This document shows positions 37,801 to 63,518 of a stretch of DNA of 64,000 nucleotides, piece after piece. Below the pieces are notes generated by a model that was not told the origin of the DNA, ran no database searches, and saw only the letters and a list, made by a program, of their open reading frames with translations. Origin of the DNA: an uncultured Gammaproteobacteria bacterium (GTDB taxonomy: Bacteria > Patescibacteriota > Microgenomatia > UBA8517 > JACQJR01). The stretch is taken from positions 5,152 to 69,151 of the forward strand of contig CAYTZB010000005.1 of the NCBI GenBank assembly GCA_964442455.1, given 5' to 3'. Position numbers and translations under genes: made by a program. The stretch's first letter is position 1, and each line of letters starts with the position of its first letter.

Positions 37801-40800
37801 CTCCTTCATCCAAAGTTACTGTTCCTCCCAACTGAGTGGGACATCCTTCCCCTGCTATAGAAACGAATTCGTAACCGGTTAAACCAGCTTCGTTGATTGC
37901 AACTGAAGTGTTGGCGTCAACTTCTATTGTTTGACCAGAGGTTACAGGAACGCCTCCTATTGTAAGTCCAAAATTGTTTACGCCGGCATTTCCACCATTA
38001 TCGTTGATTACGTTCTTGATAAGAGTAACTGTTGGACCAACATCATTGTTTGTGATAGTACAAGTTTTGGTCTGCCCAAAAGCAATCGTGCCTGAACAAT
38101 CCTGGGATAAGCTCTTGGTATAGCCTGAAACTGAATCCTCATCAACGCTGTAAGACCCGGCGTCCAGCGTGACTGTAGTTCCATTTTCATCACCTTGGAA
38201 CGAAGAGTCGCTTACATTGGTTCCGGTAACATTTATATTAAAGTCACTCGCAACGTTATCTCCGCCGTTGTTATTAATTACGTGTTTAATAACAATTAAT
38301 TGTGCGGATACCTGTTTGTTTGTTACGTAAACATTGAAAGTTCCACCGCTTGAGACTGTTACAACCCCTCCATCGCTTATTGAAACTAGCTGATAACCAG
38401 TTGGTGCTGTAGCTTCCGTTATAGTGTATGTACCGGGTCCCAAATCAGGGTAAGTTGCATCTGTTCCTTCTGCAATAGCCTTTGGAGTGCCTCCGTTAAG
38501 CAACGAAGTAAACTCTGTTGAATTTGAAACATCTGTAGTCCCATCTGTGCCAAGAACGTTTTTATGAACAATAATTTGAGCGTTTTGGAAGTTTACGAAA
38601 GTGAAAACGTAGTTGCTGCCGCTTGTTGCTTGACCAAAACTGTGGGTTGTATCGCCAAGATTTGTCCAGCCTCCCGGGGTCTCTTCTGAAACTCCGTATG
38701 TGTGCCCCGGGCCCAAGTTTGTCCATGTATAACAACCATCTTCTTCGGTTGTTTGAGTATCGCTTACTTGACTATCAACCAAAAGTTTAACGGTCCAACC
38801 AGATTTATTTGTCTGGTCACCCGTAGTTCCTATATCTCCATCAGCGTCTATTACCTTACAAGCTTTAACGCTTACATTCTTAAAGTTTATAAAGTTTTGC
38901 TCTGTAACACTCCCACCTGGAGTAAGGGTGACGTTCTTGAAAACTGCAGTTAACGCCGTCCAACCAGCTTGTAGAACTTCTTTTACTTGATAATAGCCAG
39001 GAATAATACTCGAGAAACTATATGAACCGTCTGAAGCTGTATTTATGGTTTGAGATAAGACACAGCCGGTAAAGTCTGAAGCACAACTCCAAAGCTCAAT
39101 CGCCCAGCCAATTAATCCTGTCTGGTCGCCGCTAGTCAATAGACTTCCATCTGTGTCCTCAAATTTAAATCCTGAAATAGAGCCTACATTTTGATAATTG
39201 ACAAACGTGATGATTAGATTTTGATTACTGGCAAGAGTTTGAGTTGTCCCATTACTGGCGTTTGTATCATTATCCGGGTTTATATTATTTAGGGTATAAC
39301 CTGCCGTCACTATTTCTGAAAATGTGTACGTGCCGGGGGCAAGGGTATAAACGGCATTAAGACCCTCGTGGAAATCTTTATTATCTCCGCCACCTCTTTG
39401 AACTACGAAATTTGTGCTATCCAAGACATCATTCCCATTTGGATCGCGGACGTCTTTAACAATGGTTACAATAGCGTTCTTTTGCTTGTTTGTACAAGTA
39501 ACAGTTATAGTTCCGTTGCTGGAAACGGTAACTTGAGCTCCGTCTCCGGGAGTTTGGTTTGCGTCCGGAGTACAAGAAACATAAGTGTAATTTGAGTCTT
39601 CTACTTCTGTAATCGAGTAGCTACCCGGATTAACAGGATAGCTAGCAGTCAGGGTTTCTGAGAAGCTTTGATTATTTGCCCCATTTAGTTGTGCTGTAAA
39701 GGCATGATTATCAGAAACATCCGAGCCATCCGGAGCACGAACATCTTTAACAACGTTAATGGTTGCTTTCTTTTGCTTGTTGACAACATTAACGGTTTGC
39801 TGCTCGCCAGGCCCAACAACAACCTGTGTACCACCAGCACCCGTGTCTTCGTCTGGTGTGATGCTTACCAAATCATAATCCGGATCAGGACTTTCAGTTA
39901 TTGCGTATGTTCCTGGGACAACCGTGAATACGCCGTTGTCACCCTCCCCAATTTGGTCTGACTGACTGCCAACATTGACTGTGAATTGATGTGTATCTGA
40001 AACCTCTCCGCCATCTGGATTAAGAACATCTTTAATTACTGTTATGGTCGCATTTTGCTGGCGGTTGACAACGAATACATCTGTAGTTTGTCCCGGAGTA
40101 ACCGTCACTTGGGCACCGCTTGTCCCCCCATCATTATCCGGAGTAATACTGAATAAGGCATAACCTGTTGGCGGGGTATCCTCTGTAATTGTGTGTGTAC
40201 CTGCGGTAATGTCAGTGTAAGTAAAAGTTTCCCCGTCGGTGAGGAATTGAGGATTGGCACTGTCTAGTCTGACCGTAAAGTTTTGAGAAGTATCGGTTAT
40301 CGCTTCACCATTTGGACCCTGAACATCTTTATGAACAATAATTGTTCCAGTGTTTAGGGCGTTATGAAAGGTACAAGTGGCGTTAGTTGGCGGTTTACCT
40401 GCGGCTACTGTGGCAGTAGCTGTCGAACCATTAAAGGTGCAACTTGTGCCAGTACCACTTGCAAACGTATAGCCTGCGGGGCCACTTTCGGTAACGGTGT
40501 AATTCCCATCAGGAGAAACATTGTTAATGGTCACAGAGTTTTGACCTGGAGGTATGGGGTAGACTGATTGCCCATTAATTGCCGGTGTAATGGTAAACGA
40601 CCACTGATCAGAAGTTGCGCTACCACTATCCACAATCTTGCTCAATGTAATCGAAGGTAACTGCAGTAATTGGTTGACTGGGATCGGAATATTTTCTTGA
40701 CCACCCTGGGCTGTTCTTATACTCATCGAAGAACCATTAAACTGACTTGCATCCAAACCCAGTCTGCCGCAGAAAAGCATGTAAACAGTATTATGGGAGG

Positions 40801-41974
40801 GAACATTCGACAAGATTACATTGTAATGACGCAAAGAATCGGAACTGCTAATTGGAGTTGTACCATCATTATTACCACCGAATGGACCCGAGACTGTTGC
40901 TGGCACCGTTCCACCACTACTTTTTACGAAGCTCGTGGATGATGTAAAGTCGCTACCAGGGTAGGAAAAATCATTTAAGTTATCAGCCGAGGATCGGGGA
41001 TTACCGCTTAACCCAGTCGTGATTTGTTCTAGATGGTCGATACCGATAACACTATTTTGGAAATCATACACAGGACTGACGATAATATCCCCATCAGTAT
41101 TGTCATTGTTTTTGACTTCAATCTCAGTCGGTATACATGCCCCTTCTGGATAGGCACCAACATTACCGTTTTTAAGTTCCCCTGTTCCGGTTGGCTGGCC
41201 ACTAACAAGACTATAGACGCCAGATAAGACAAAACCGAACATACTGATTGCCACTTTGTTGTCTGGAATAGTAGAATCCGTAAACGTGGTTGTTGCCAAA
41301 ACTGACGCACCCAGCAGTACTTCAACCAGATAGCTTCCCTGTTGTCCTTCGCCGCGGAGAGGGTATAGATAAATAAAGGAACCATTTTGGTCGGTTGTTA
41401 CCGTATCGGATGAACCTATATTACCTTCCGCATCTCGAACCTGCCCATCTGGCCAGGTTACACGAACAGTTAAGTTAGAATTTGTTGGGAAATTGGAACC
41501 GGTTATTGTAACTGTATCCGAAGGAGAATAATCCGCTTTGTCGGTTGAAAGAGAATAGTTAAGTTGTGCGCTTGGCTCGCTTTCTTGTTGTCCTAGATCA
41601 AGTTGAGGGGGCCCGGTAGTGGTTTGCGGACTTACATCGTTTGCTTGGACTAAGACCTCCCCTGAAAGAACGGGTGGTTCGGAATTGTCTGGTGTGGGAG
41701 TTGGTAACAAAACCTCAGGTGTTGCGGTAACTTGCGGTGTAGGCGTTAAGGAAGGATCTGGCGAAACCGTAGGGTCTGTCGTTTCACTCGTTATTGACGG
41801 TGAATCTGTTGGGGCTTCTGTCGGAGCAATTGTTGCTTCGGGGGTTGGTGTTGCACTTTCCGCAAAAACTACTCCCGGCGCCAAAAGAACCGGCGCCCAA
41901 GAATTAAGCAGTAGGGAGACCGTTGCTACTATAGACAAAAACTTAGATAGTCTTCGGCCAAGTTCTTTTCTCAC
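34817..41974 (-). CDS. Giant (2385 aa) secreted multi-domain surface protein. It has an N-terminal signal/TM, a Ser/Thr/Pro-rich stalk, tandem Cna-B/SpaA-type and DUF11-like beta-sandwich repeats (about 95 aa each), an internal LPAAG sorting-signal-like module, an FN3-like domain and a C-terminal TM anchor.
   Basis: Cna-B-like 'SDGSYSFSSIIPGYYQVKEVLQAGW' is present. There are four near-identical repeats 'VINDNGGNAG..DFG..VGG..VLSG.TT.V.AN....INE.GL.GY.F.SI.GD.KCP..LGGTV.LDEGE..TCTITN'. The FN3-like segment is 'YRLFWKNPGDSDFSRVFIYRSDKP...GKTYFYALRAVDHAGNGS'. The C-terminus is 'LLALGVILIVVIGALVFWPRRPRE'. Confidence 0.8.
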   Translation of the reverse strand: MRKELGRRLSKFLSIVATVSLLLNSWAPVLLAPGVVFAESATPTPEATIAPTEAPTDSPSITSETTDPTVSPDPSLTPTPQVTATPEVLLPTPTPDNSEPPVLSGEVLVQANDVSPQTTTGPPQLDLGQQESEPSAQLNYSLSTDKADYSPSDTVTITGSNFPTNSNLTVRVTWPDGQVRDAEGNIGSSDTVTTDQNGSFIYLYPLRGEGQQGSYLVEVLLGASVLATTTFTDSTIPDNKVAISMFGFVLSGVYSLVSGQPTGTGELKNGNVGAYPEGACIPTEIEVKNNDNTDGDIIVSPVYDFQNSVIGIDHLEQITTGLSGNPRSSADNLNDFSYPGSDFTSSTSFVKSSGGTVPATVSGPFGGNNDGTTPISSSDSLRHYNVILSNVPSHNTVYMLFCGRLGLDASQFNGSSMSIRTAQGGQENIPIPVNQLLQLPSITLSKIVDSGSATSDQWSFTITPAINGQSVYPIPPGQNSVTINNVSPDGNYTVTESGPAGYTFASGTGTSCTFNGSTATATVAAGKPPTNATCTFHNALNTGTIIVHKDVQGPNGEAITDTSQNFTVRLDSANPQFLTDGETFTYTDITAGTHTITEDTPPTGYALFSITPDNDGGTSGAQVTVTPGQTTDVFVVNRQQNATITVIKDVLNPDGGEVSDTHQFTVNVGSQSDQIGEGDNGVFTVVPGTYAITESPDPDYDLVSITPDEDTGAGGTQVVVGPGEQQTVNVVNKQKKATINVVKDVRAPDGSDVSDNHAFTAQLNGANNQSFSETLTASYPVNPGSYSITEVEDSNYTYVSCTPDANQTPGDGAQVTVSSNGTITVTCTNKQKNAIVTIVKDVRDPNGNDVLDSTNFVVQRGGGDNKDFHEGLNAVYTLAPGTYTFSEIVTAGYTLNNINPDNDTNASNGTTQTLASNQNLIITFVNYQNVGSISGFKFEDTDGSLLTSGDQTGLIGWAIELWSCASDFTGCVLSQTINTASDGSYSFSSIIPGYYQVKEVLQAGWTALTAVFKNVTLTPGGSVTEQNFINFKNVSVKACKVIDADGDIGTTGDQTNKSGWTVKLLVDSQVSDTQTTEEDGCYTWTNLGPGHTYGVSEETPGGWTNLGDTTHSFGQATSGSNYVFTFVNFQNAQIIVHKNVLGTDGTTDVSNSTEFTSLLNGGTPKAIAEGTDATYPDLGPGTYTITEATAPTGYQLVSISDGGVVTVSSGGTFNVYVTNKQVSAQLIVIKHVINNNGGDNVASDFNINVTGTNVSDSSFQGDENGTTVTLDAGSYSVDEDSVSGYTKSLSQDCSGTIAFGQTKTCTITNNDVGPTVTLIKNVINDNGGNAGVNNFGLTIGGVPVTSGQTIEVDANTSVAINEAGLTGYEFVSIAGEGCPTQLGGTVTLDEGESVTCTITNDDIAPSITLIKEVINDNGGNAGSDDFGISVGGSAVLSGATTTVSANTPIVINEVGLTGYSFVSISGDAKCPEILGGTVTLDEGESITCTITNNDVGPTITLTKVVVNNNGGNAQPNDFDPTIDGNVVLSGSTTQVSANQPHTINETVLDGYNFVSITGDAKCPNTLGGTVTLDEGENISCTITNDDIIPTITLIKEVIGGNADPDDFGLLVDDIGVLSGFATEVDANTPIAIDEDGLEGYSFTSITGDEKCPEVLGGTVILDEGEDVTCTITNTRDIGEIVVNKQVDTNGDGSFEGDNDVANELGFRWGIDEETPEREMGESAGPLDTGTYDVSENNVLGYHFVGWFEGEGTCEDPENAELPASITVEEDQSAEITLCNARDTGDLTVLKNVDANGDGDLNDEEDIIGATNWTWDIAGVEQNIATGQTRTLPTESYTISEDLQEEFGLVSWSCSDETSGTTNEIVVNLTTDGVTCTFTNQKLLPGISLTKTNDHTSSASGSDVVTYTLVITNTGGGTLHDVRLVDVLPSGFTFIPLTGTPADPDSVSGNILTWNNLGDIAGTASLTVTYKAVIASDIHAGTHTNLAFAQGTGSDTFQSNIVRSSVPIGKGVFISYDIHQPQVLAAVTELPAAGANTVWLVYVGFLLGAGFGLRRLGLALAPRRKGRAKKSGLWKKFLGSVVVLLLFIFVAQVSPAKAAVTVDILDLPSYTNTDTFYISYTALDIEGDSVTANFFVKKDGGTFRSLVNSSTTGATNKVLVTGADFYDGQGKYIFRVEVTGGADTSADETNTNFDHSGPSGVQEYRKERPSDSSYRLFWKNPGDSDFSRVFIYRSDKPEFTADGGTKVGEVGGAPDQQMSWDNFGLESGKTYFYALRAVDHAGNGSGIVADQEAQVTAGAVLASAATTTGAVAGGVGEVKILPKEEPSEGEILGGEATPTPSAAPTPVGEEQGGLLERLSGNRLLALGVILIVVIGALVFWPRRPRE
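35750..35900 (-). other. Internal sortase-signal-like module within the giant ORF: LPAAG, then a hydrophobic segment, then a basic patch RRLGLALAPRRKGRAKK. It is immediately followed by a signal-peptide-like segment KKFLGSVVVLLLFIFVAQVSPAKA-AV.
   Basis: Translated directly from the sequence. No stop codon or frame change occurs between the two parts. A sortase gene lies directly upstream at 42031-42681. Confidence 0.55.
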
Positions 41975-42030: not shown

Positions 42031-42681
42031 TTAATCAATTGCTACTTTTTTTGAAATAACAATTAACCTCTTAAGTGTCGTTCCCGGAGGATAACAAGTT
42101 TGTAGAGTGAGCATTTCCTCTTTATTTTTGGTATTGCGAAGATATTTAATGTCCGCCGAAGGAACAACTTTTTTCTCAACAACCTCATATTTGAATCTTT
42201 CTCCTTTATAAAAAATATCAATCTCGTCTCCCTTCTCAAGTTTTCCGATAAGATAAAACACGGCGTTGTAGCGACCAACATTTAGGAAACTATCGGTTGA
42301 GTGAGCAAAAAGATAAACGTTTCCCTCCTCACCCGGCAAGGCAGTACCCTTTGCATGAGCTACGCCGCTCTTTAACACGGAAAGATATTCTGACTTGTTA
42401 AAGGGATTAACATTGGCAAAAACCGGTGCGTTGGCGGCAAGTTTGGGAATTACTATTCCAAAATCTGTGCTCGCGGGGGTAATTTGGCGGTCGGAGGAAA
42501 AGGGTTCAACTGAGTATTTTATCTGAAATAGTTCATTAATCTTATACCCAATTTCTTCTTTTATTGCCGGCCCAAAGGTAAAAATAAGCATTAAAACTGC
42601 ACCGACTATAAAGAGATTACCCAAAAACATAAGAGCTCGAGCCAGGAAAATAATTTTTCTGTTTTCAGCTTTAGTAGCCAT
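42031..42681 (-). CDS. Sortase (transpeptidase) with an N-terminal TM anchor
   Basis: His is in 'GNVYLFAHS', the catalytic Cys in 'LTLQTCYP' (TLxTC motif), and Arg in 'RLIVIS'. The ORF-track start (42933) overlaps galE by 263 nt. The internal ATG at 42681 (MATKAEN..., TM 'IIFLARALMFLGNLFIVGAVLMLIF') is preferred. Confidence 0.7.
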   Translation of the reverse strand: MATKAENRKIIFLARALMFLGNLFIVGAVLMLIFTFGPAIKEEIGYKINELFQIKYSVEPFSSDRQITPASTDFGIVIPKLAANAPVFANVNPFNKSEYLSVLKSGVAHAKGTALPGEEGNVYLFAHSTDSFLNVGRYNAVFYLIGKLEKGDEIDIFYKGERFKYEVVEKKVVPSADIKYLRNTKNKEEMLTLQTCYPPGTTLKRLIVISKKVAID

Positions 42682-43651
42682 TAGGATTTTGTTTATGCCA
42701 AAGATGGGCAGTTTTGACAATGGTTTCAAGATCAGAGTGTTTTGGTTTCCAACCAAGCTCTTTTTGAAGTTTTGAAGAGTCGGCAACAAGTTCTGCCGGA
42801 TCCCCTTCTCGGCGTGGGCCCACTTTAACGGGAAACTCACCCGCAACTTTTTTGACCATCTCAATAACTTCACGATTTGAATATCCTTGGCCGGTACCGG
42901 CATTATACGCCGCACACATTTGACCACTTTCAAGAGCCTTAAGTGCCAGGATATGTGCTTCTACTAAATCCAAAACATGAATATAGTCGCGGATGCACGT
43001 TCCGTCTTTTGTTTCGTAGTCGTCCCCAAAAAGAGTAAACTCGCTTTTCGACAACGCTGCGCGTATCGCAAGGGGGATGATATGGCTTTCGTTTTTATGA
43101 GCTTCACCCAGTGAACCATCTAACGCCGCACCTGCTGCATTAAAGTAACGAATACTAATTGAGTTTATCTTGTGGATTTGGTGGTACCAATGGAGTAACC
43201 GCTCAATCATCACTTTCGTCTCTCCATATGCGTTTGTAGGGGATTGCGGGTGCTCTTCTGGAATTGGGATTTTGGTTGGATTACCATATACTGCAGCACT
43301 TGAGGAAAACACAAACTTGCGTATACCTGACAGCGCGCATGTTTCAATTAAATGAAAACTACCCTCGACATTATTCTTAAAGTACTTTCCGGGATTCTGC
43401 ATTGATTCACCGGCTTGAATGAACGCGGCAAAGTGCATAACCGCCTCTATTTCATTTATTTGAATTGTCTTTTCAATTAATTGTCCTCCAGTTACTAAAT
43501 CTCCTTCTACTACCTTTACTTCTTTTGGGATTGCCTCTTTGTGGCCTTCTGAAAAATTATCAAACACCACAACAGAATGCCCTGCATCTTTCAAGGCACG
43601 AACCGTAAAACTCCCAATATATCCTGCTCCGCCGGTAACTAGAATGTTCAT
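42671..43651 (-). CDS. galE: UDP-glucose 4-epimerase GalE
   Basis: 326 aa. 'MNILVTGGAGYIGS', the YxxxK motif and the remaining sequence have the GalE profile. Confidence 0.85.
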   Translation of the reverse strand: MNILVTGGAGYIGSFTVRALKDAGHSVVVFDNFSEGHKEAIPKEVKVVEGDLVTGGQLIEKTIQINEIEAVMHFAAFIQAGESMQNPGKYFKNNVEGSFHLIETCALSGIRKFVFSSSAAVYGNPTKIPIPEEHPQSPTNAYGETKVMIERLLHWYHQIHKINSISIRYFNAAGAALDGSLGEAHKNESHIIPLAIRAALSKSEFTLFGDDYETKDGTCIRDYIHVLDLVEAHILALKALESGQMCAAYNAGTGQGYSNREVIEMVKKVAGEFPVKVGPRREGDPAELVADSSKLQKELGWKPKHSDLETIVKTAHLWHKQNPNGY

Positions 43652-45076: not shown

Positions 45077-46267
45077 TTAAATTCCTGGTGTCGGTGGATC
45101 TCGATTTACAAAATCAGCGTTCGTATTAGTGTCAATTCCATCTGGATCCCTTTCATGGGAAATTCCCGCTGACGTAGCCGCTGGAATCGATGGGTTTAGG
45201 CCATTAGTATTGGAGCCCCAGCTAATATGATCAACAATTAGCCCTGATGAAGGACAAACTCCACTTCTTAACGCTAGCTCATCATTATTGGCTAAGCCAT
45301 TACCAATTGATGATGGGGCAACAATGAAAACAACGCTGCCATCAGTTGGAACTGCCGTCCAAACCGCCCTAAACTCAGCTTCTGTGTGAGTAGAAACAAT
45401 CGCAAATCCATTTGAAGGTATAGAGGCATTGGGCATGTTGTCACAACTGGTGTTATCGGAAATAGACCAGTTGGCTAGACTCACAGCGGTACTTGTTGGG
45501 TTGTAAAGCTCGGCCCATTCTGAATCAGCTTCGCTACCAATTCGATGGGCTTGAGCAATTCGATAGTAGACTTCATTTATGACAATGTCATTAATACTCG
45601 GAAATTGTCCGGCAGTAAAAATATTATTCGTACTTGATCCGGAATTTGAGAAAAAGGCATGGGAGTTTTGGATAAATGAACCACTTATAATAAGGGGAAT
45701 AAGAATAACAAGACTATTTAAACTCACAGAAGGTGAAAATGAGCCTTGAGATTTCCCGCGTTGCCTTCTAATTTCTTTAAAGATATTTACAACTTCCAAA
45801 ACAATTACAAGTAATGCCGGGAAAATAACAAGAAGTGGAAAACCAATATTCGACTTAGTAAAAGCAAAAAGCCTTCCTATATACGGCAAGAGAAATATTG
45901 CTTTTCCGACAACCTTCTCTTCCGCTACTACTCCATTATCCGGCGCATTATTCGCATCTCCTTTTGTTTGATAAAACAATTTCCCCTCTTTTGTTTCAAC
46001 AGCAACAATTCTGTGTGTTGTAAGAATTTTGGGATCCTTCTCGCCTTTAAAGGCAACAATATCACCTTCTTTGTATAGTAGTAACCCTTCACCTTTGGAA
46101 TTGACGACCACAAGATCACCGACTTTAATCGTCGGTTCCATACTTCCTGAGCGAACAATCAATGCTTTATTATCAAACCAAGGAATGGCCACGAACGCCA
46201 ATCCTACTGCTACTATTACAAGCAGCACTGATACAACATAACTAATACTTTTTAAGAGCGTATTCAC
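45077..46267 (-). CDS. Archaeal/ER-type signal peptidase I (SipW-like) fused to a C-terminal lamin-tail domain (LTD)
   Basis: An N-terminal TM then 'IVRSGSMEPTIKVGDLVVV' carry the SPase I catalytic Ser box and 'GD'. The C-terminal 'INEVYYRIAQAHRIGSEADSEWAELYNPTSTAVSLANWSISDN' is an LTD signature (NEV.Y...EW.ELYN...L.GW.L.D). Confidence 0.65.
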   Translation of the reverse strand: MNTLLKSISYVVSVLLVIVAVGLAFVAIPWFDNKALIVRSGSMEPTIKVGDLVVVNSKGEGLLLYKEGDIVAFKGEKDPKILTTHRIVAVETKEGKLFYQTKGDANNAPDNGVVAEEKVVGKAIFLLPYIGRLFAFTKSNIGFPLLVIFPALLVIVLEVVNIFKEIRRQRGKSQGSFSPSVSLNSLVILIPLIISGSFIQNSHAFFSNSGSSTNNIFTAGQFPSINDIVINEVYYRIAQAHRIGSEADSEWAELYNPTSTAVSLANWSISDNTSCDNMPNASIPSNGFAIVSTHTEAEFRAVWTAVPTDGSVVFIVAPSSIGNGLANNDELALRSGVCPSSGLIVDHISWGSNTNGLNPSIPAATSAGISHERDPDGIDTNTNADFVNRDPPTPGI

Positions 46268-46364: not shown

Positions 46365-46967
46365 CTACTGTGACAGATTTTGATGACCTACAAACGTAAA
46401 CGTTTCTGTAATTGACTTTCCTTGGTAGGTATCATCTGCATCCTCATCAAACTCGAAGGTCAGACATAGGTATCTAGTTTCACCCGACACTATTGCCGAA
46501 AAAGGCAAATCAAGATCCGTTGTGTTCAGAGCAGCTAAAGTTGTAAAGCTACCAGTAATATCATCTGGATCATCGGCGCAGGTTGAAACGGAATCAATTT
46601 TAGCGGACGTGATATTCAATTGAGTAGCTAGATCTGGAGAACTTGAAACGGTCTCTGTTGCTCCTAAGTTAACTTCTGCAATATCGATCGAACCATCGTT
46701 GTGCATAGATACAAACCCAGAAGTAGTATCACCAGGTGCCATATCAGCATCTCCGAACGAGGCATCAATTGTGGCAGCAGGCGTTATGTCGTCGTCATCG
46801 TCTAGCAGAAGAACAAGATCACCACTAGCAAATACGTTGTCAGTACTTGTTGCTGTGCTTGAGAAAAACGCAAATGTTGAGCCGACAATTAATGCTCCTG
46901 CGGCGGCAATTGACGCAAGACTTAATGCAATTCGTGAATTAATTGCAAAAGGCATAATTTTTATCAC
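46365..46967 (-). CDS. TasA/camelysin-family-like secreted protein with a SipW-cognate-class signal peptide
   Basis: 'RIALSLASIAAAGALIVGSTFAFFSSTATSTDNVFASGDLVL' matches the SipW-dependent signal peptide pattern (...ALIGGGTFAFFSDTE.S.N.F.AG.L.L). The remainder is Asp/Thr-rich. Confidence 0.6.
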   Translation of the reverse strand: MIKIMPFAINSRIALSLASIAAAGALIVGSTFAFFSSTATSTDNVFASGDLVLLLDDDDDITPAATIDASFGDADMAPGDTTSGFVSMHNDGSIDIAEVNLGATETVSSSPDLATQLNITSAKIDSVSTCADDPDDITGSFTTLAALNTTDLDLPFSAIVSGETRYLCLTFEFDEDADDTYQGKSITETFTFVGHQNLSQ

Positions 46968-54455: not shown

Positions 54456-55490
54456 CTACACGCTAGTCAAGCTGCTGATTACAAATTCGTCAAGTTTTCC
54501 ATCAAGCACACCTTCCGCATCAGACAGTTCTACCCCTGTTCTTAAATCTTTTACCATTTTATAGGGGTGAAGTACATATGAGCGACGTTGCGCCCCCCAA
54601 GACGCAGGTTTGTATTCGCCCCTCAATGCTTTTTTCTCTTTTTCTTTTCTTTCCTGTTCCCTAACCCACAACTTTGCCGCAAGCAAGCGCAGAGCAATTT
54701 TTCTATTTTGCTCTTGGAAACGCTCTGTTTGGGCGGTAACGACTATTCCTGTGGGCTTGTGCGTTAACCGCACGGCAGTTGACACCTTCTGGACATTTTG
54801 CCCACCGTGTCCTGAAGCACGGAAAAATTGCCACTCAAGCTCGTCTTCTTTAATACCTATTTGCTCTGTTTCGGGTAGTTGAGGAAGTACCTCAACCAAC
54901 GCAAATGAAGTTTGGCGAAGCCGCGCCGCATTAAAAGGAGACTGGCGCACGAGACGGTGTGCTCCCGCTTCATGTTTTAAATAGCCATACGCATATGGTC
55001 CGTCAACGAAAAGTGTTGCTGATTTAACCCCTGCTTCCTCTCCAGGCACAATATCAACCATCTCAACCTTCCAACCACGGCGTTCAGCAAAGCGCATGTA
55101 CATACGCTCGAGCATTTGCGCCCAATCCATTGCCTCGACTCCCCCTTGCCCCGCGTGAATTGAAATAATCGCCGGTTCTTTATCATACGGACCCGACAAA
55201 AATGCTAAAACTTCTAGCTTCTTTAGTTCTTTGTCTACTTCACTTAACTCGAAATTCTCCGCTATCTGCTTTTCTACCTTTTCCACCTCACCTACTTGCT
55301 CTTGAAGTAGAGAAAGCTCACTCATTAACTTTCCGGCTCTACCCGAATCCTGCCAAAAAGAGGGGTTTTGCGACTCACGACTCAACTCCCCTATCCGCTT
55401 TTTCTTTCCGGGAACATCAAGCGCAGACTTTAATTTCTCTACTCGTTCTTGTAATTCAACTTTCGTTGCCATACCCACCAATTGTACCAA
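54456..55490 (-). CDS. prfB: Peptide chain release factor 2 (single uninterrupted frame)
   Basis: 344 aa. The 'SPF' tripeptide ('RQSPFNAARLRQTSFALV') is RF2-specific, and 'SGHGGQNVQK' is the GGQ motif. Confidence 0.85.
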   Translation of the reverse strand: MVQLVGMATKVELQERVEKLKSALDVPGKKKRIGELSRESQNPSFWQDSGRAGKLMSELSLLQEQVGEVEKVEKQIAENFELSEVDKELKKLEVLAFLSGPYDKEPAIISIHAGQGGVEAMDWAQMLERMYMRFAERRGWKVEMVDIVPGEEAGVKSATLFVDGPYAYGYLKHEAGAHRLVRQSPFNAARLRQTSFALVEVLPQLPETEQIGIKEDELEWQFFRASGHGGQNVQKVSTAVRLTHKPTGIVVTAQTERFQEQNRKIALRLLAAKLWVREQERKEKEKKALRGEYKPASWGAQRRSYVLHPYKMVKDLRTGVELSDAEGVLDGKLDEFVISSLTSV

Positions 55491-56719: not shown

Positions 56720-57160
56720 ATGAAACGGCTACTTCTCGCAACAACTTTAATACTAATAGTAGGAGTAATTGTGGTTTCAACTGCGAGTGCAAAACGACTG
56801 CTTCCGCGTGCACAAAAGCCGAGCGTTCCTTCAGGAGCCAGTACAGCAGTCAAAACTGTGGGAGTTAAACCAATTGTGGGGTTTAGAAGCGACCGCCGTG
56901 CCATTATTGTCACTTTTCAAAACTTAGAAATTGCCGCCCGTGTGGAATACTCGCTTACCTACACCTCACGGGGGATAAAACAGGGTGCTGGAGGAGTAAT
57001 CACCCCTACTACTTCCGAGGAAACCAGAGAGCTTTTGTTTGGCACATGCTCCCATGGAGTATGCCGCTACGATACAGGTATCACCAACGCACGGTTTACT
57101 GTTACTACTGTCCTCAAAAACGGCCGCAAAGTTGTTAAACCATTCAGACTTCGGGTGTAA
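56720..57160 (+). CDS. Hypothetical secreted protein
   Basis: The internal Met MKRLLLATTLILIVGVIVVSTASA looks like a signal peptide. The ORF-track start at 56684 adds 12 aa. Confidence 0.4.
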   Translation: MKRLLLATTLILIVGVIVVSTASAKRLLPRAQKPSVPSGASTAVKTVGVKPIVGFRSDRRAIIVTFQNLEIAARVEYSLTYTSRGIKQGAGGVITPTTSEETRELLFGTCSHGVCRYDTGITNARFTVTTVLKNGRKVVKPFRLRV

Positions 57161-57170
57161 ACTGCTTTTC

Positions 57171-57198
57171 TTGACTCCATAAACTGAAGGTATATACT
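57171..57198 (+). promoter_or_regulatory. Sigma-70-like promoter (TTGACT, 16-nt spacer, TATACT) preceding a roughly 180-nt structured leader and the small-peptide cassette
   Basis: Hexamers read directly. The leader contains the hairpin TTGGAAACGT-cga-ACGTTCCAA. Confidence 0.4.
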
Positions 57199-57377
57199 AT
57201 TGTACAAAACGAAAAAGATTCAACAAGCGAATCTTTCATTCGTTTCACAACTGAATAAAAGGTCTTGTCGAGAGCAAGATAAAAAGCATTTTGTCTTTCG
57301 ATAAAGACGGTAGTGTTGGAAACGTCGAACGTTCCAAAGCACCTTGACATCAAAGTGTGTGTTCAAAAGGAGAAACC

Positions 57378-57467
57378 ATGCGATCTCGCGGCGATGGTCT
57401 CGGATTAGTGATAACGATACTGTTACTCATCGTCTTCGTAGTGGCCATACTATTGCTCCCTGGATGA
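57378..57467 (+). CDS. Small hydrophobic peptide P1 (29 aa, 1 TM)
   Basis: MRSRGDGLGLVITILLLIVFVVAILLLPG. An AAAAGGAGA ribosome-binding site lies 5 nt upstream. Confidence 0.45.
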   Translation: MRSRGDGLGLVITILLLIVFVVAILLLPG

Positions 57468-57481
57468 AAAGGAGGAAAGAG

Positions 57482-57664
57482 ATGAAAATTCGAGTACGTG
57501 TCGTGGAGATAATCCGGATTTTCTTCTTCTTGGCAATAGGAGTACTGGTAGTACTGGCAGCAAGAGGCGTGATAAGTTTTGAATTGCTGGCAAAAGCCCT
57601 CGTAGTGCTGATTGTCTTTGTAGTCGCAGGAATTTTTGTGACCGTTCGGATTGGCTCCCGGTGA
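57482..57664 (+). CDS. Small hydrophobic peptide P2 (60 aa, 2 TM)
   Basis: MKIRVRVVEIIRIFFFLAIGVLVVLAARGVISFELLAKALVVLIVFVVAGIFVTVRIGSR. An AAAGGAGGAAAGAG ribosome-binding site lies directly upstream. Confidence 0.5.
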   Translation: MKIRVRVVEIIRIFFFLAIGVLVVLAARGVISFELLAKALVVLIVFVVAGIFVTVRIGSR

Positions 57665-57698
57665 CTAAAACCAGCAATTCTCAATAAGGAGGAAAAAG

Positions 57699-57794
57699 AT
57701 GAGTCCCAGAATGATAAATGCTCTGACAGTACTCGTTGGACTGACTATCGCGTTCCTTGGAGGATTCTTCCTCATAGCAGGAGGCATAAGATGA
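57699..57794 (+). CDS. Small hydrophobic peptide P3 (31 aa, 1 TM)
   Basis: MSPRMINALTVLVGLTIAFLGGFFLIAGGIR. An AAGGAGGAAAAAG ribosome-binding site lies upstream. Confidence 0.45.
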   Translation: MSPRMINALTVLVGLTIAFLGGFFLIAGGIR

Positions 57795-57844
57795 TTCGCC
57801 ATGACGAATAACCAATCCAGCTACAGTTCCTCAAGGAGGAAACA

Positions 57845-58243
57845 ATGAGCGCGCGATCGTTTTGGTTTCTGATAGCAACCAGTGTGAGTATGTGGAGTAC
57901 ACTACTTCTTTTGATTGCCATAGATGGCCAGGGAAGTATGACATCCTATAGAGTGTCAGGACTCGTTCTTCTAACAGTATGGTGGATCGTGGAGCTTGTC
58001 ACAGCGTTGGATGGGCTTTGGTTTCCGACAAGGGACATGATACTTGGGGTGGTGATAGTTCTCGTGAGCATACTTGCGAATGTTGCAATAACCGCTGCAA
58101 TCCGAGCATGCTGTGCAAGCATCACCCACGAGGTAACACTCATCGTATCAACCGTGATAACTAACATGCTGGTCCTAGCAACCTTTGTTAACCAATGGTT
58201 GCCAAAACAACCAAATGGAGAGGTAACAACTCCCAGACGGTGA
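57845..58243 (+). CDS. Small membrane protein P4 (132 aa, 4 TM)
   Basis: An AAGGAGGAAACA ribosome-binding site lies upstream. Four hydrophobic helices. Confidence 0.5.
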   Translation: MSARSFWFLIATSVSMWSTLLLLIAIDGQGSMTSYRVSGLVLLTVWWIVELVTALDGLWFPTRDMILGVVIVLVSILANVAITAAIRACCASITHEVTLIVSTVITNMLVLATFVNQWLPKQPNGEVTTPRR

Positions 58244-58272
58244 GTAAACCCGGGTTCCTAAAGGAGGTTTCT

Positions 58273-58392
58273 ATGGAATGGATGAGCGGTGATGAATGGT
58301 TCACGGGCTGGGTGGTCTTCGCAGCCATCTTTTTGGTGATCGCTGTCGTAGGATTGGCAGGGAGATTACTTGGAAGATGGATAAAACGATAA
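58273..58392 (+). CDS. Small hydrophobic peptide P5 (39 aa, 1 TM, Trp-rich N-terminus)
   Basis: MEWMSGDEWFTGWVVFAAIFLVIAVVGLAGRLLGRWIKR. An AAAGGAGG ribosome-binding site lies 6 nt upstream. The ORF-track start at 58195 is less likely. Confidence 0.45.
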   Translation: MEWMSGDEWFTGWVVFAAIFLVIAVVGLAGRLLGRWIKR

Positions 58393-58423
58393 TACCAACA
58401 CTACAACTGAATAAATACAACTA

Positions 58424-58488
58424 GAGCGGCATGTACCGTTGTCAATCAGGTAACTGATTTGCATGATGGTATAGCCGCTCTTTTTTTT
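58424..58488. terminator. Bidirectional rho-independent terminator between the peptide cassette (+) and the VIT gene (-)
   Basis: GAGCGGC...(inner hairpin AATCAG/CTGATT)...GCCGCTC followed by TTTTTTTT. Confidence 0.55.
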
Positions 58489-60081: not shown

Positions 60082-61755
60082 ATGAGTAAGCATCTCCTCC
60101 TCTTAATTACCATTTCCGTATTTTCAACTGTCGGGATGAAGGCTCTAACCAGTCCAGGGCTTTTTACTGCACATGATATTTGGCATCAAGTAGCACGATT
60201 TTATCATTATCACCAAGCGTTCATTGACAAGCAATTCCCTCCCTATTGGATAGACACTTTAGCTGCGGGGTTTGGATACCCATTGTTTTTCTTTTCGTAC
60301 CCTTTACCTTGGATTATTGGTATTCCATTTCTAGAGCTTGGATTTGATATCCCAACAACAATAAAAGTTCTTTTCTTTCTCTCATATCTTTTATCGGGAG
60401 TTTTTATGTACTTGTTCGCATCCGAACTTTTTAAAAACAAACCCGCCGCTCTTTTATCCTCAATTCTTTACCTTTGGGTACCATATCACTTTTCAACAAT
60501 TCTAGTAAGCGCTGCTATGGGGACGGCATTTGTGTTTACATTTTTTCCTTTACTCCTCCTGGGAATATATAAAATCGGCAACGATAAATCACCAAAGTTA
60601 GGAATTATTTTTACATCTTTTGGTCTTTCAGGAATAATACTCTCTCACATATTGACAACTATCTCATTGCTCCCTTTTATCACCGTATTTACTCTATGGA
60701 TTTTGTTAAACAAAGTTAAAGGCAAAGTTAGGAATGATTTTATCAAAAACGTTACTTTTTCTTTCTTTCTTGGAATTGGTTTATCAACCTTCTATCTCCT
60801 ACCCGCAGTTTTTTATAGTAAATTAACTCAAGTCTCAACAGGAGCATTCAGCGCACTCTATCAAAAAAATTTTGTAAATATTGACCAACTTATATATTCT
60901 CGCTGGGGATACGGGATAAGCGACAATGCAAAAGACGGAGTAATATCCTATCAAATTGGTATAGCTCAATGGTTAGCTTTCCTTGGCACACTAGCAATAT
61001 TTTTAATCAGCAGATCCCGCCTTGCAAGACATTTAATTGAAAGGGTCTCTAAAGAAACAAAAATATTGAGTATTGTGCTCGTGGGTTTATTCGCATTTTC
61101 CACTTTCATGATGATTGATGTCTCGCGTCTAATTTGGGATTTTGGAGCAAAGTTTATAACTCTTGATTACCCAACAATGTTCTTGCTTTCCGCAGCTTTT
61201 TCCGGATCCCTACTAGGTGGCTTACTATTAAAACTAATCAAAGAAAACCTCCGTCCGGCTCTTTTTATTGGAATAGCAGCTGTCGCGCTCTACACAAACA
61301 GAAATCATCTAAACGTCAATATGTATACAAACTACCCGGTATCTCTTTATGTCGCATCAGAAACAACCACAAATTCTTACCATGAATATTTACCAAAAGA
61401 GGCGGATATAAAACTATTTAACGAACCTCACCCATCATTTATAATTCCCGACCTCACTATTTCGGAACTTACTAGAAACACTCGTGGAATTTCTTTTACT
61501 ACTACTCCAAAAGAAGATCTAACGCTTACTCTTAATCATTTTTCTTTCCCGGGAATTTCTCTATACATTGATGGAGAGAAAAGATTATTCACATTAAATA
61601 CACGAGGAAAAATCACATTTCCAATATCTCAAGGAGTACATCAAGTTAAAGTGTCTTTTGAGGAAACGCCTTTGATAAAGATCGCAAAATTCATTACTAT
61701 TGGTTCTCTTATTTTTGTTGTATGGTTAATTAGCAAAATGTTATTGTATCACTAA
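60082..61755 (+). CDS. GT-C-like membrane protein (PTPS-related/'HD-loop' family). Paralog of 14689..16533.
   Basis: 557 aa. 'FTAHDIWHQVARFYHYHQAF...FGYPLFFFSYPLPW' matches the paralog. About 12 TM plus a C-terminal soluble domain. Confidence 0.55.
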   Translation: MSKHLLLLITISVFSTVGMKALTSPGLFTAHDIWHQVARFYHYHQAFIDKQFPPYWIDTLAAGFGYPLFFFSYPLPWIIGIPFLELGFDIPTTIKVLFFLSYLLSGVFMYLFASELFKNKPAALLSSILYLWVPYHFSTILVSAAMGTAFVFTFFPLLLLGIYKIGNDKSPKLGIIFTSFGLSGIILSHILTTISLLPFITVFTLWILLNKVKGKVRNDFIKNVTFSFFLGIGLSTFYLLPAVFYSKLTQVSTGAFSALYQKNFVNIDQLIYSRWGYGISDNAKDGVISYQIGIAQWLAFLGTLAIFLISRSRLARHLIERVSKETKILSIVLVGLFAFSTFMMIDVSRLIWDFGAKFITLDYPTMFLLSAAFSGSLLGGLLLKLIKENLRPALFIGIAAVALYTNRNHLNVNMYTNYPVSLYVASETTTNSYHEYLPKEADIKLFNEPHPSFIIPDLTISELTRNTRGISFTTTPKEDLTLTLNHFSFPGISLYIDGEKRLFTLNTRGKITFPISQGVHQVKVSFEETPLIKIAKFITIGSLIFVVWLISKMLLYH

Positions 61756-61766
61756 CAAAAAAATTA

Positions 61767-63518
61767 ATGCGCAGATTTCTATACCTAATACAGCATAATT
61801 ATTTGCTTCTTTTAATTCTTATATTTACTTTTTTAAGTAGGCTTCTTCTGCTCGATAAATTTCCAATAGGGATAACTCACGATGAATTAAATTATGTTAT
61901 TGCTGCCAAATCTTTATATTGGACAAAAAACTTCGCACCGGGTACAGCACCTGCTGTTTTTTCGACTGATATGACGAATTTCAGCGTAACAATTGCTGAA
62001 GTTCCTGCCTCAATTCTTGCTTTCTTTATTGGTCCTTTAGATACTTCTCTTTTTACGAGCAGAATTATTGGAGCAATTTTAAATTCTTCTATAGTTCTTG
62101 CCATGTATTTTCTCGTCAAACGTTTAATAAATAGTAAACTTATCGCTTTATTGACTTCTTTAGTTTTAGCCATAAATCCCTGGAGTTTTTTAATGGGAAG
62201 AACTATTTTTGAAACTAATTTTTTTGTCGCTTTTTTTCTTTGGGGATCTGTAATATTACTCGGTCAAAAAGGCTTCAAAGTTTTGCGTGCCTTACCTTTT
62301 TTTATTCTTGGATTTTTTAGTTATACAGGAGGACAAATTGCTTTTTATCTTTTTATTAACATCATATTGCTTTATCGTTACTTCACTCTTCCCAGACAAC
62401 AGATAACCCCTTACGCAATTTTTTTTGTGACAATGACAATAATTCTAGCAGGCTATGTTTATGTTGTGCTTAATAACCAATCTTATTCTTCAAGGGGAGG
62501 AGAAATATACACACCACAAGCAGTTGCCCAAGAAGTTGATAAAGAGAGACAAGTTGCAGTCCAAAATAGCGTTAACCCCATTTTTATTAATAAGATAACT
62601 TTATATTTAAGTGGTTTCCTGGATAAATATCTAAATGCCTATTCTGTTAATAATTTGTTTTTAAGAGGTGAGCTGCGCGCTGCTTTTTCTTACCAGAAAC
62701 ATGGCACTTTTTATTTCCTCGATTTTCTTTTTATAGTTATTGGAGTCTCTTTTTTGTTTAGTAAATACAGGAAAGTTTGGGTCCTTGTGTTATCAATTAT
62801 TGCGGCAGGGGCAGTAACATCAGGAATAAGCTTTATTGAGTATTCATACAGTCAAAGATCTGGATTAATATTTCCTTTTATAACTATCCTTATAGGCGCA
62901 GGGTTGGGTTATATCCTTACAATTTTTAAAAAAAATAAATTTAGGTTTTTTATAGGAGGTGCAATTTTTATCACCTACGGTTTTCTCTTTTTAAATCTTT
63001 TACATTTGTATTTCTATCGTTTCCCTGTTTATGCTTCAGATGGTTGGTTTTTCCAGGATAGGATTTTAAGCCGCTATATTGCACTGACAAACCAGGAACA
63101 TCAAAACACAAAAGTTGTAGTTTCTACCTTTGAACCAAAAATAATTTTCCAGGAATATCTATTTTTTAACAACATTTATAATGGAGAGGAAATTTCCGTC
63201 ATAAATCAAGAGATGAAAAGCGGAGATTATTCTTTTAATAATGTTGTTTTTACAGATAAATGTTTTGATGATAACTTTGACAAGAATACAGTTTGGATTG
63301 GCGATGGATTGCTCGGGTGTGAGAGATTCTCTATTAAAGAAGATAATTTACGCATCACCCGCTTCAGAGATGTTTACGAAATTTATTTAATAAAAGAAGA
63401 TAAAATTTGCCAAGGTCAACAGTTAAATTCTTATGTCTCGCCATTCTCTTTCCAGGATTTTAACATTGAAAAACAGTCAAAAAGTGAATTTTGTCAAAAC
63501 TGGATTACTAAGTTGTAA
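61767..63518 (+). CDS. GT39/PMT/ArnT-like GT-C membrane glycosyltransferase
   Basis: 583 aa. '[19 protein letters not shown]' is the acidic first-loop motif. Polytopic. Confidence 0.6.

Follow-up and report, generated by a model that had tools for sequence, protein, structure and literature searches.

What does a bacterium that hardly uses Shine-Dalgarno (SD) sites gain from a row of minute genes, each behind a strong SD site and each coding for little more than transmembrane (TM) helices? This question is raised by a locus in contig CAYTZB010000005.1, of which one stretch of 64,000 nucleotides (nt) was analysed (hereafter the window). The host is a groundwater Candidatus Microgenomates bacterium of the candidate phyla radiation (CPR), and the region is identical to contig JACPFY010000005.1 of GCA_016182755.1. 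Five small open reading frames (ORFs), named O1 to O5, are all present on the + strand and encode 29, 60, 31, 132 and 39 amino acids (aa), as claimed in a preliminary description of this DNA. On the basis of five haplotypes from one small clade, the window included, we consider it probable (roughly 0.6) that the locus provides a highly expressed, fast-turnover and strain-specific set of small (inner-)membrane proteins on one mRNA with constant ends, likely related to conflict or immunity and fitting no known family.

The ORFs are arranged in a predicted transcription unit of about 1.29 kb, comprising a promoter, a structured leader, five cistrons and an intrinsic terminator. Its parts are given below, where L015, L024 and L025 are contigs of relatives, HP is a hairpin and UTR an untranslated region.

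57171-57198, + strand: sigma-70-type promoter TTGACT-16-TATACT, 10/12 matches; hexamers and spacing identical in L015, L024 and L025
about 57205-57377, + strand: leader of about 173 nt, folding better than shuffled sequences (z = -3.7)
57207-57245, + strand: 5' hairpin HP1 at the predicted 5' end of the mRNA; inner stem AAAGAUUC/GAAUCUUU invariant in four leaders
57247-57259, + strand: ACAACTGAATAAA, 5' copy of a 13-nt direct repeat with only two copies in the window
57262-57308, + strand: leader hairpin HP2, retained in L024 and L025 via four one-sided wobble changes
57310-57319, + strand: GUAGUGUUGG, 5' arm of a predicted long-distance 5'-3' helix, within the alternative local hairpin HP3 (57309-57343)
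57366-57467, + strand: O1 cassette (ORF 57378-57467), SD AAAGGAGA, 29 aa, one TM segment
57468-57664, + strand: O2 cassette (ORF 57482-57664), SD AAAGGAGG, 60 aa, two TM segments
57685-57794, + strand: O3 cassette (ORF 57699-57794), SD TAAGGAGG, 31 aa, one TM segment
57832-58243, + strand: O4 cassette (ORF 57845-58243), SD CAAGGAGG, 132 aa, four helices
58260-58392, + strand: O5 cassette (ORF 58273-58392), SD AAAGGAGG, 39 aa, one TM segment, basic C-terminus
58395-58415, + strand: 3' UTR CCAACACUAC-AACUGAAUAAA, 100% identical in all relatives; contains the 3' helix arm (58395-58404) and the 3' copy of the 13-nt repeat (58403-58415)
58423-58488, no strand assigned: terminator hairpin (58423-58481) and T-run, shared with the convergent VIT1 gene

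The promoter, a hairpin-bearing leader (put at about 180 nt) and a strong bidirectional terminator had been proposed beforehand, and all three were recovered; the terminator region folds at -38 kcal/mol (z = -5.6). Relatives likewise carry a hairpin and T-run at the terminator position, with a partly different stem sequence, and in L015 a hairpin of other sequence occupies the position of HP2. The statement that the cassette lies opposite to the surrounding genes holds for those further left and for VIT1 and LytR_C on the right, but not for the adjacent upstream gene (56720-57160), which is also on the + strand. Judged by these sequence features, the promoter-to-terminator operon of small membrane-protein genes is real. 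In the NCBI annotation of the identical contig, O1 and O3 are missed; the other three ORFs are called, but O2 and O5 with starts that make them too long.

An indication that these ORFs are translated comes from their SD sites. Of the 17 AAGGAGG heptamers on both strands of the 64 kb, four fall within the 800 bp of the cassette, each 5-6 nt ahead of an ATG, whereas an SD of at least 6 nt precedes only 4/54 long ORFs of the window, even with the most favourable start chosen. This bears out the contrast with the rest of the window drawn in the preliminary description, which had also credited every ORF with a perfect SD; that is correct for four of them, but O1 is preceded by AAAGGAGA. Elsewhere in the window, the only perfect SD (AAGGAGGTGA) belongs to a camelysin/TasA-like (Peptidase_M73) gene. 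In a census of 498 ATG-initiated ORFs of 25-150 aa from all six frames of the window, O1-O5 alone combine an SD of at least 6 nt with a strongly hydrophobic 19-residue window, and of the 14 census ORFs with any SD, none of the others is as hydrophobic. Simple hydropathy yields 1, 2, 1, 4 and 1 TM segments for O1 to O5, in agreement with the range of one to four given earlier, and the 19-residue Kyte-Doolittle maxima of the short peptides lie between 2.4 and 3.4.

Across the locus and its relatives, the same module recurs: a short spacer leads to a consensus SD ((A)AAGGAGG), which is followed after 5-8 nt by the ATG of a small ORF consisting almost wholly of TM helix (1-4). An SD of this type stands at every start codon (at least 13 starts in five haplotypes), and TM-like segments are found in 12/12 cassette families, compared with 9% of random window ORFs. 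Real translation had been thought likely. With SDs kept at every ORF and in every haplotype, hydrophobicity throughout and, in O4, a ratio of nonsynonymous to synonymous change (dN/dS) of 0.44 with only in-frame indels, O1-O5 are very probably real, translated small membrane-protein genes. The consensus SDs would lead to high translation in a genome otherwise hardly using SD sites. The anti-SD is generally retained in CPR bacteria, except in a subgroup of Parcubacteria (PMC9297842). The programmed frameshift of the release factor 2 (RF2) gene was considered as an independent anti-SD test and dropped; prfB (54456-55490, - strand) is here a single frame from the ATG at 55470 and lacks the usual +1 frameshift site. 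A 6-codon mini-ORF (MIRHDE, 57790-57810, + strand) overlaps the O3 stop and has an SD-like sequence of its own, CAGGAGGC, a third copy of SD repeat family D1; it is probably insignificant.

Relatives were recovered with two flanking anchors, VIT1 and the 146-aa secreted protein encoded directly upstream of the operon. In the closest of them, the flanking genes are 85-89% identical, and the site between these genes holds five gene contents with at least 12 unrelated families of small membrane proteins. The five haplotypes read as follows.

Window: leader, O1, O2, O3, O4, O5, terminator
H1 (L024 and L008): leader, O2' (78% identity), G (58 aa), b' (104 aa), E (76 aa), O5' (82% identity), terminator
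L015: leader, a (45 aa), b (104 aa), 9-codon remnant of E, O5 deleted, terminator
L007: ..., F (74 aa), O5', terminator
L001: A, O4' (59% identity), C

H1 was joined from L024 and L008 by a 74-nt identical overlap. In an all-against-all BLASTP comparison of the cassette ORFs, the only homologous sets were O2/O2', O4/B, O5/O5' and b/b'/D; homology among the remaining ORFs was rejected, their likeness being one of TM composition only. The O2 homologue in L024 (78% identical) is equal in length to O2, and O5 is 82% identical in relatives from the Hainich aquifer. The array always lies between the conserved gene of the 146-aa secreted protein and VIT1 and is confined to a small groundwater Microgenomates clade; in relatives whose 146-aa protein is only about 60% identical, the cassette is absent and the right flank is different. 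Promoter and leader are constant on one end, and O5, 3' UTR and terminator on the other. On this comparative evidence, the locus is a strain-variable cassette array of small membrane-protein genes. Conservation of the reading frames in related genomes, which had been named as a check, was accordingly found in the nearest relatives for O2, O4 and O5; the locus being a variable array, O1 and O3 are missing there or have given way to other genes.

Several independent short-read contigs, from two Logan data sets (SRR12113422, SRR12113430) and from GCA_964363945.1, start or stop exactly at cassette junctions, for example at window positions 57471 and 57825 and at the end of contig L006, a hint, though no more than that, of a mixture of haplotypes within those samples. 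L024 (5228-5298) and L025 (851-921) have about 70 extra nt with a small hairpin (CCACCTCGAAGGTGG) between the 146-aa gene and the promoter; the window and L015 lack this stretch.

Database searches bore out the earlier remark that none of the ORFs has recognisable homology. Neither O1-O5 nor four cassette ORFs from relatives gave a significant match in Pfam, PHROGs, NCBIfam or PADLOC, and O1-O5 had no Pfam or NCBIfam match even at E<=1. Viral contigs (IMG/VR), phage genomes and plasmids likewise contained nothing for the cassette. For O4, a profile search against the PDB was empty, an exhaustive profile search of 1.84 billion representatives found no sequence other than the query, and the single homologue (59% identity) in 5.8 billion clusters, or about 15 billion proteins, is encoded on L001, an 895-bp contig from the Hainich aquifer. 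Back-translated scans of JGI metagenomes and GTDB genomes found none for O4 and only loci already recovered for O5. AlphaFold2 models O4 as four helices at a predicted local distance difference test score of 55, too poor for a fold search. A small flippase of GtrA or SMR type, suggested for O4 by the glycosylation context described below, was rejected as Pfam support is absent at E<=1. In Rfam, the window had no match at the gathering threshold; the locus, searched at E<=5, gave a single chance match to a snoRNA (small nucleolar RNA).

How do the modules come and go? As read from the aligned haplotypes, the breakpoints of gained, lost and swapped modules lie at repeated SD and spacer sequences. 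O1 is a 103-nt indel, absent from H1, with AAAAGGAG at both of its ends, once as the SD of O1 and once as that of O2. O3 is replaced in H1 by the unrelated 58-aa TM ORF G between conserved spacers, and in L015 O5 was lost between a GGAGGTT in its SD and a GGAGGTT inside its coding sequence. L007 and L008 share 99.4% identity over their last 315 nt; further upstream, from about 25 nt ahead of the O5 ATG, they are unrelated. Cassettes of different haplotypes that are otherwise unrelated repeatedly share junction sequences of 16-30 nt (consensus TAAAAGGAGGAAAGNGATGA), and the spacers between ORFs measure 14-50 nt. Since no integrase, invertase, attC-like site or phage gene was found in the 64-kb window and the GC content of the cassette resembles that of its flanks, we infer that the conserved flanks may allow modules to be exchanged by ordinary homologous recombination and that slippage or microhomology at the SD repeats may add or remove them.

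These observations also bear on the idea that the locus is the remnant of a phage or mobile element, be it a holin-type lysis cassette, a superinfection exclusion system or an integron-like or invertible array, which we regard as very unlikely. Such an origin could account for small TM proteins with charged ends, for SDs so unlike those of the host genes that they suggest foreign origin, and for the 10-bp inverted repeat (57310-57319 and 58395-58404) and the 13-nt direct repeat flanking the array. However, no phage, plasmid or viral contig is similar to the locus and no PHROG matches it, the GC content is that of the flanks, and endolysin, integrase and invertase genes are absent from the 64 kb, as are muramidase and amidase genes from the operon. 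The analogy to holins that had been drawn thus finds neither an endolysin nor a phage context. Integron arrays are similar in that promoterless small ORF modules, many of them orphans, stand serially behind one promoter; unlike them, the present array has no attC site and no intI integrase in the 64 kb, and its spacers are too short for attC and contain no imperfect palindromes. An inverton or shufflon, considered for the 10-bp inverted repeat, was rejected: all six contigs have the same orientation, none breaks at the repeats, and there is no recombinase. The 13-nt repeat (ACAACTGAATAAA) was also discarded as an att site or target duplication. Its copies are not adjacent to the inverted repeats, and it is given little weight because the 5' copy carries two substitutions in L024 and L025, where it is therefore not conserved.

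Replacement-type flexible genomic islets and the hyperplastic regions of T4-type phages are known for unrelated small genes at one site, with repeated junction motifs at the breakpoints. The array resembles both in that unrelated small genes share a site in close strains and short repeated junctions mark the breakpoints, but here the junction is a ribosome-binding site, the genes lie on one mRNA with conserved pairing ends, and the host is a CPR bacterium and not a phage. While a variable islet of small membrane-protein genes is a familiar kind of locus, the organisation found here, with SD-delimited cassettes, one promoter and pairing mRNA ends, is not assignable to a described system.

The constant ends of the mRNA were analysed for their conservation and folding. 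Four haplotypes hardly differ in the promoter, HP1 and the beginning of the leader; over its full length, the leader of the window is 91.7% identical to that of L024, compared with 78% identity (22% differing) at synonymous sites of the adjacent 146-aa gene. RNAalifold retains HP1-HP4. At the other end, identity among relatives is about 90% to 100% over O5 and 26 nt of 3' UTR. By sequence, these conserved UTRs are mutually complementary: GUAGUGUUGG in the leader is the exact complement of CCAACACUAC in the 3' UTR, and a 10-mer complement between leader and 3' UTR arises with P = 0.003 in 5,000 dinucleotide shuffles. The predicted helix is part of the minimum free energy (MFE) fold (ViennaRNA) of three mRNAs:

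window mRNA, 1291 nt: pair probability 0.92
L015 mRNA, 817 nt: pair probability about 1.0
H1 mRNA, 1478 nt: pair probability about 1.0

The duplex is predicted at -20 kcal/mol, against -12.3 kcal/mol for the competing local hairpin HP3 that contains the 5' arm. This arm is present in 4/4 leaders, including that of L015, where the HP3 region is missing and the arm stands in another sequence context; the helix extends to 13 bp in L015 and 12 bp in L025, and neither arm motif occurs elsewhere in the fetched loci. In the window, the helix lies 47 nt upstream of the O1 SD and covers no SD, and its 3' arm starts 2 nt past the O5 stop codon. The conserved UTRs could thus form an expression platform, in which the 5' hairpin and terminator would stabilise the mRNA and the leader-3' UTR helix of 10-13 bp would compete with HP3 and close the coding region into a loop, possibly as a switch of stability or translation. 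A ribosome terminating at O5 should open the helix, because the 3' arm begins 2 nt after the stop, so that translation of O5 would be expected to melt it.

Among known systems, the mRNA architecture comes closest, by analogy, to type I toxin mRNAs such as hok/Sok and aapA1/IsoA1, which likewise have small hydrophobic ORFs, strong SDs, 5' and terminator stem-loops and a helix between 5' UTR and 3' end, and in which a local hairpin (here HP3) may occupy the 5' arm until the 3' end has been transcribed. According to T1TAdb, 5' and terminator stem-loops, strong SDs and a long-distance 5'-3' helix are key determinants of toxin mRNAs (PMC8594479). It is therefore conceivable, if improbable, that the locus is a type I toxin-antitoxin-like system, in which one or several of the small hydrophobic peptides, above all O5 with its TM segment and basic tail (GRLLGRWIKR), act as membrane toxins from an mRNA silenced by the 5'-3' lock, by anti-SD hairpins and by an unseen antisense RNA. 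The size and composition of O1, O3 and O5 (29-39 aa, one TM segment) would fit on composition alone, the mRNA has the 5' stem-loop, terminator stem-loop, strong SDs and conserved 5'-3' helix of such transcripts, a UUCCU located 6 nt upstream of several SDs could form 5-bp anti-SD hairpins, and the O5 region is 90% identical at the nucleotide level next to a perfectly conserved 3' UTR.

On the other hand, no antisense RNA gene was found, with Rfam empty and a scan for antisense promoters and terminators giving one weak site on the - strand; a conserved candidate extended -10 element (TGGTATTAT) on the - strand over the O5 stop is our own reading. An antisense promoter over the conserved leader (TTGTTG-16-TACAAT) was rejected with 8/12 matches and no conservation in L015. 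The helix pairs GUAGUGUUGG and sequesters no SD, which leaves the weak 5-bp UUCCU/AGGAA hairpins at some SDs, and it is kept in L015, which has lost O5. A polycistronic mRNA of five ORFs with variable gene content is also unlike known type I loci, and neither Hok, Fst, Ldr, TxpA, Ibs nor any other toxin family was matched (Pfam/NCBIfam, E<=1). The type I analogy of the preliminary description is hence not supported, as the helix covers no SD, known toxin families are not matched and the scan gave no convincing - strand unit for an antisense RNA.

A strain-variable array with an own strong SD per gene also invites comparison with bacteriocin loci. In this explanation, some of the 29-39-aa peptides would be exported antimicrobials, leaderless or similar to phenol-soluble modulins (PSM-like), with O2 and O4 as immunity proteins, and the region would vary like the pneumococcal blp region, where strain-variable bacteriocin-immunity genes lie between conserved flanks (PMC6422914). 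With small peptide and TM-protein genes that vary among five haplotypes while the flanks are conserved, the array is indeed blp-like. We nevertheless consider this explanation doubtful at best: a double-glycine leader (LSxxELxxIxGG-type) occurs in 0/12 ORF families, and the operon and the 64-kb window contain neither a C39 peptidase, nor another dedicated ABC exporter, nor a regulator, which also speaks against the bacteriocin/immunity analogy made earlier. In contrast to blp, there is no BlpAB-type exporter or two-component regulator, the promoter looks constitutive and every product is hydrophobic throughout; the short peptides are uniformly hydrophobic TM helices and not amphipathic and cationic. 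Family matches were absent as well.

Selection on the cassettes is relaxed, with dN/dS between 0.44 and 0.84. O4 is the only cassette with dN/dS significantly below 1 (0.44; proportions of synonymous and nonsynonymous differences 0.40 and 0.22, z about 3.4) and shows in-frame indels only; the ratios of the flanking genes are 0.33-0.34 for the 146-aa neighbour and 0.15 for VIT1. O2 and b have kept their exact length in both copies compared. Taken together, the sequences indicate that the cassettes evolve fast under weak or mixed constraint, with SD, open frame and TM character strictly kept.

Several points weigh against the reading that we prefer. The dN/dS analysis of the small ORFs, which had been suggested as a check, gave no ratio significantly below 1 for O5 (0.44), b (0.68) and O2 (0.84), and a homologue of O1 or O3 was found nowhere. 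O5, the best conserved ORF, is deleted in L015, and because of this loss no single cassette appears to be essential. A conflict or immunity role has neither a PADLOC nor a PHROGs match, nor a partner toxin or exporter, on its side. As for the helix, the evidence comprises four leaders and one 3' UTR sequence type, the core has no true compensatory change, the 5' arm is also explained by the local HP3 in three leaders, and a thermodynamic prediction of pairing over a range of 1 kb is by itself weak evidence.

Some of these points could be explained by neutrality. The locus would then be a dispensable transcribed spacer, a nursery of proto-genes in which short hydrophobic ORFs arise, decay and swap with little or no selection, perhaps translated but functionless. 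The high ratios of O2 and b, the deletions and remnants in L015, the extreme lineage restriction (one O4 homologue in all proteins searched) and the absence of the locus from relatives at about 60% identity are in line with this, as is the tendency of de novo ORFs to be TM-like (PMC7005711). However, a spacer free of selection would hardly keep a consensus SD at optimal spacing on every one of at least 13 starts in an SD-poor genome, nor a TM character in all 12 families against 9% of random ORFs; moreover, O4 is under significant constraint and the leader is better conserved than synonymous sites. We therefore regard a purely neutral origin as improbable.

This leaves the set of strain-specific small membrane proteins as the preferred reading, whose products would act at the membrane in conflict or recognition, toxin/immunity-like or in the exclusion of phages or competitors, rather than in housekeeping. 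The role in conflict or recognition is the weakest step; we infer it because of the fast turnover, the dispensability, the lineage restriction and the envelope-themed neighbourhood. The window is dominated by envelope and surface genes, among them glycosyltransferases, a sortase with a SpaA-type surface protein, and secreted proteases. It contains no recombinase, phage gene or peptide exporter, and its sole ABC pair is FtsEX with an M23 peptidase. The following neighbours were noted.

986-26978: envelope-glycosylation island in the first 27 kb, with at least seven GT2 glycosyltransferases, four PMT_2-type mannosyltransferase-like membrane proteins, YfhO, GT1/GT4, a polysaccharide flippase and a GtrA-fused GT2
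34817-41974 (- strand), 42031-42933 (- strand) and 32567-34816 (+ strand): 2385-aa surface protein with SpaA/prealbumin-fold repeats beside a sortase, with an adjacent VirD4/TrwB-like coupling ATPase and then a secreted CAP-domain protein
46368-46967 and 45077-46267 (both - strand): the camelysin/TasA-like (Peptidase_M73) gene, adjoining a SipW-like signal peptidase S26 fused to a lamin-tail domain
56720-57160, + strand: 146-aa signal-peptide protein from a family of about 126 proteins, apparently all from Microgenomates/Patescibacteria, without a Pfam domain
60082-61755 and 61767-63518, + strand: multi-TM proteins of 557 and 583 aa without a Pfam match, whose synteny with LytR_C, GT2 and PMT_2 is kept in relatives

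The camelysin and SipW-like pair looks like a TasA/SipW-type fibre operon in a CPR bacterium, as far as sequence resemblance goes, and the 557- and 583-aa proteins are probably novel envelope glycosyltransferase-like proteins. In several relatives examined, the 146-aa gene adjoins a block of RF2, two hypothetical genes and FtsEX-M23.

A more far-reaching proposal, which we put forward only tentatively and consider rather unlikely in full, is that of a 'plug-and-play' platform. A constitutive promoter and a pairing leader and 3' UTR would frame SD-delimited slots that double as junctions for the capture, swap and de novo formation of TM ORFs, and, as in type I toxin mRNAs, a 5'-3' lock would tie translation of the last cistron to the state of the entire mRNA. 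If true, CPR bacteria would have a kind of diversity-generating accessory locus that has not been described before.

Small orphan membrane proteins make up much of the proteome of CPR bacteria, which are uncultivated episymbionts. The locus offers a concrete and compact case, with at least 12 orphan families at one site that turn over between strains and with a turnover mechanism that is readable from the sequence, as the breakpoints lie at ribosome-binding sites. The consensus SDs found here, next to SD-less genes elsewhere in the window, provide a natural test of how translation initiation is partitioned. If the pairing of the UTRs is functional, the mRNA-lock principle of type I toxins would also apply in a distant phylum and there to a polycistronic operon, and if the products do act in conflict or recognition at the membrane, the array would be a marker of strain-level arms races in groundwater CPR populations.

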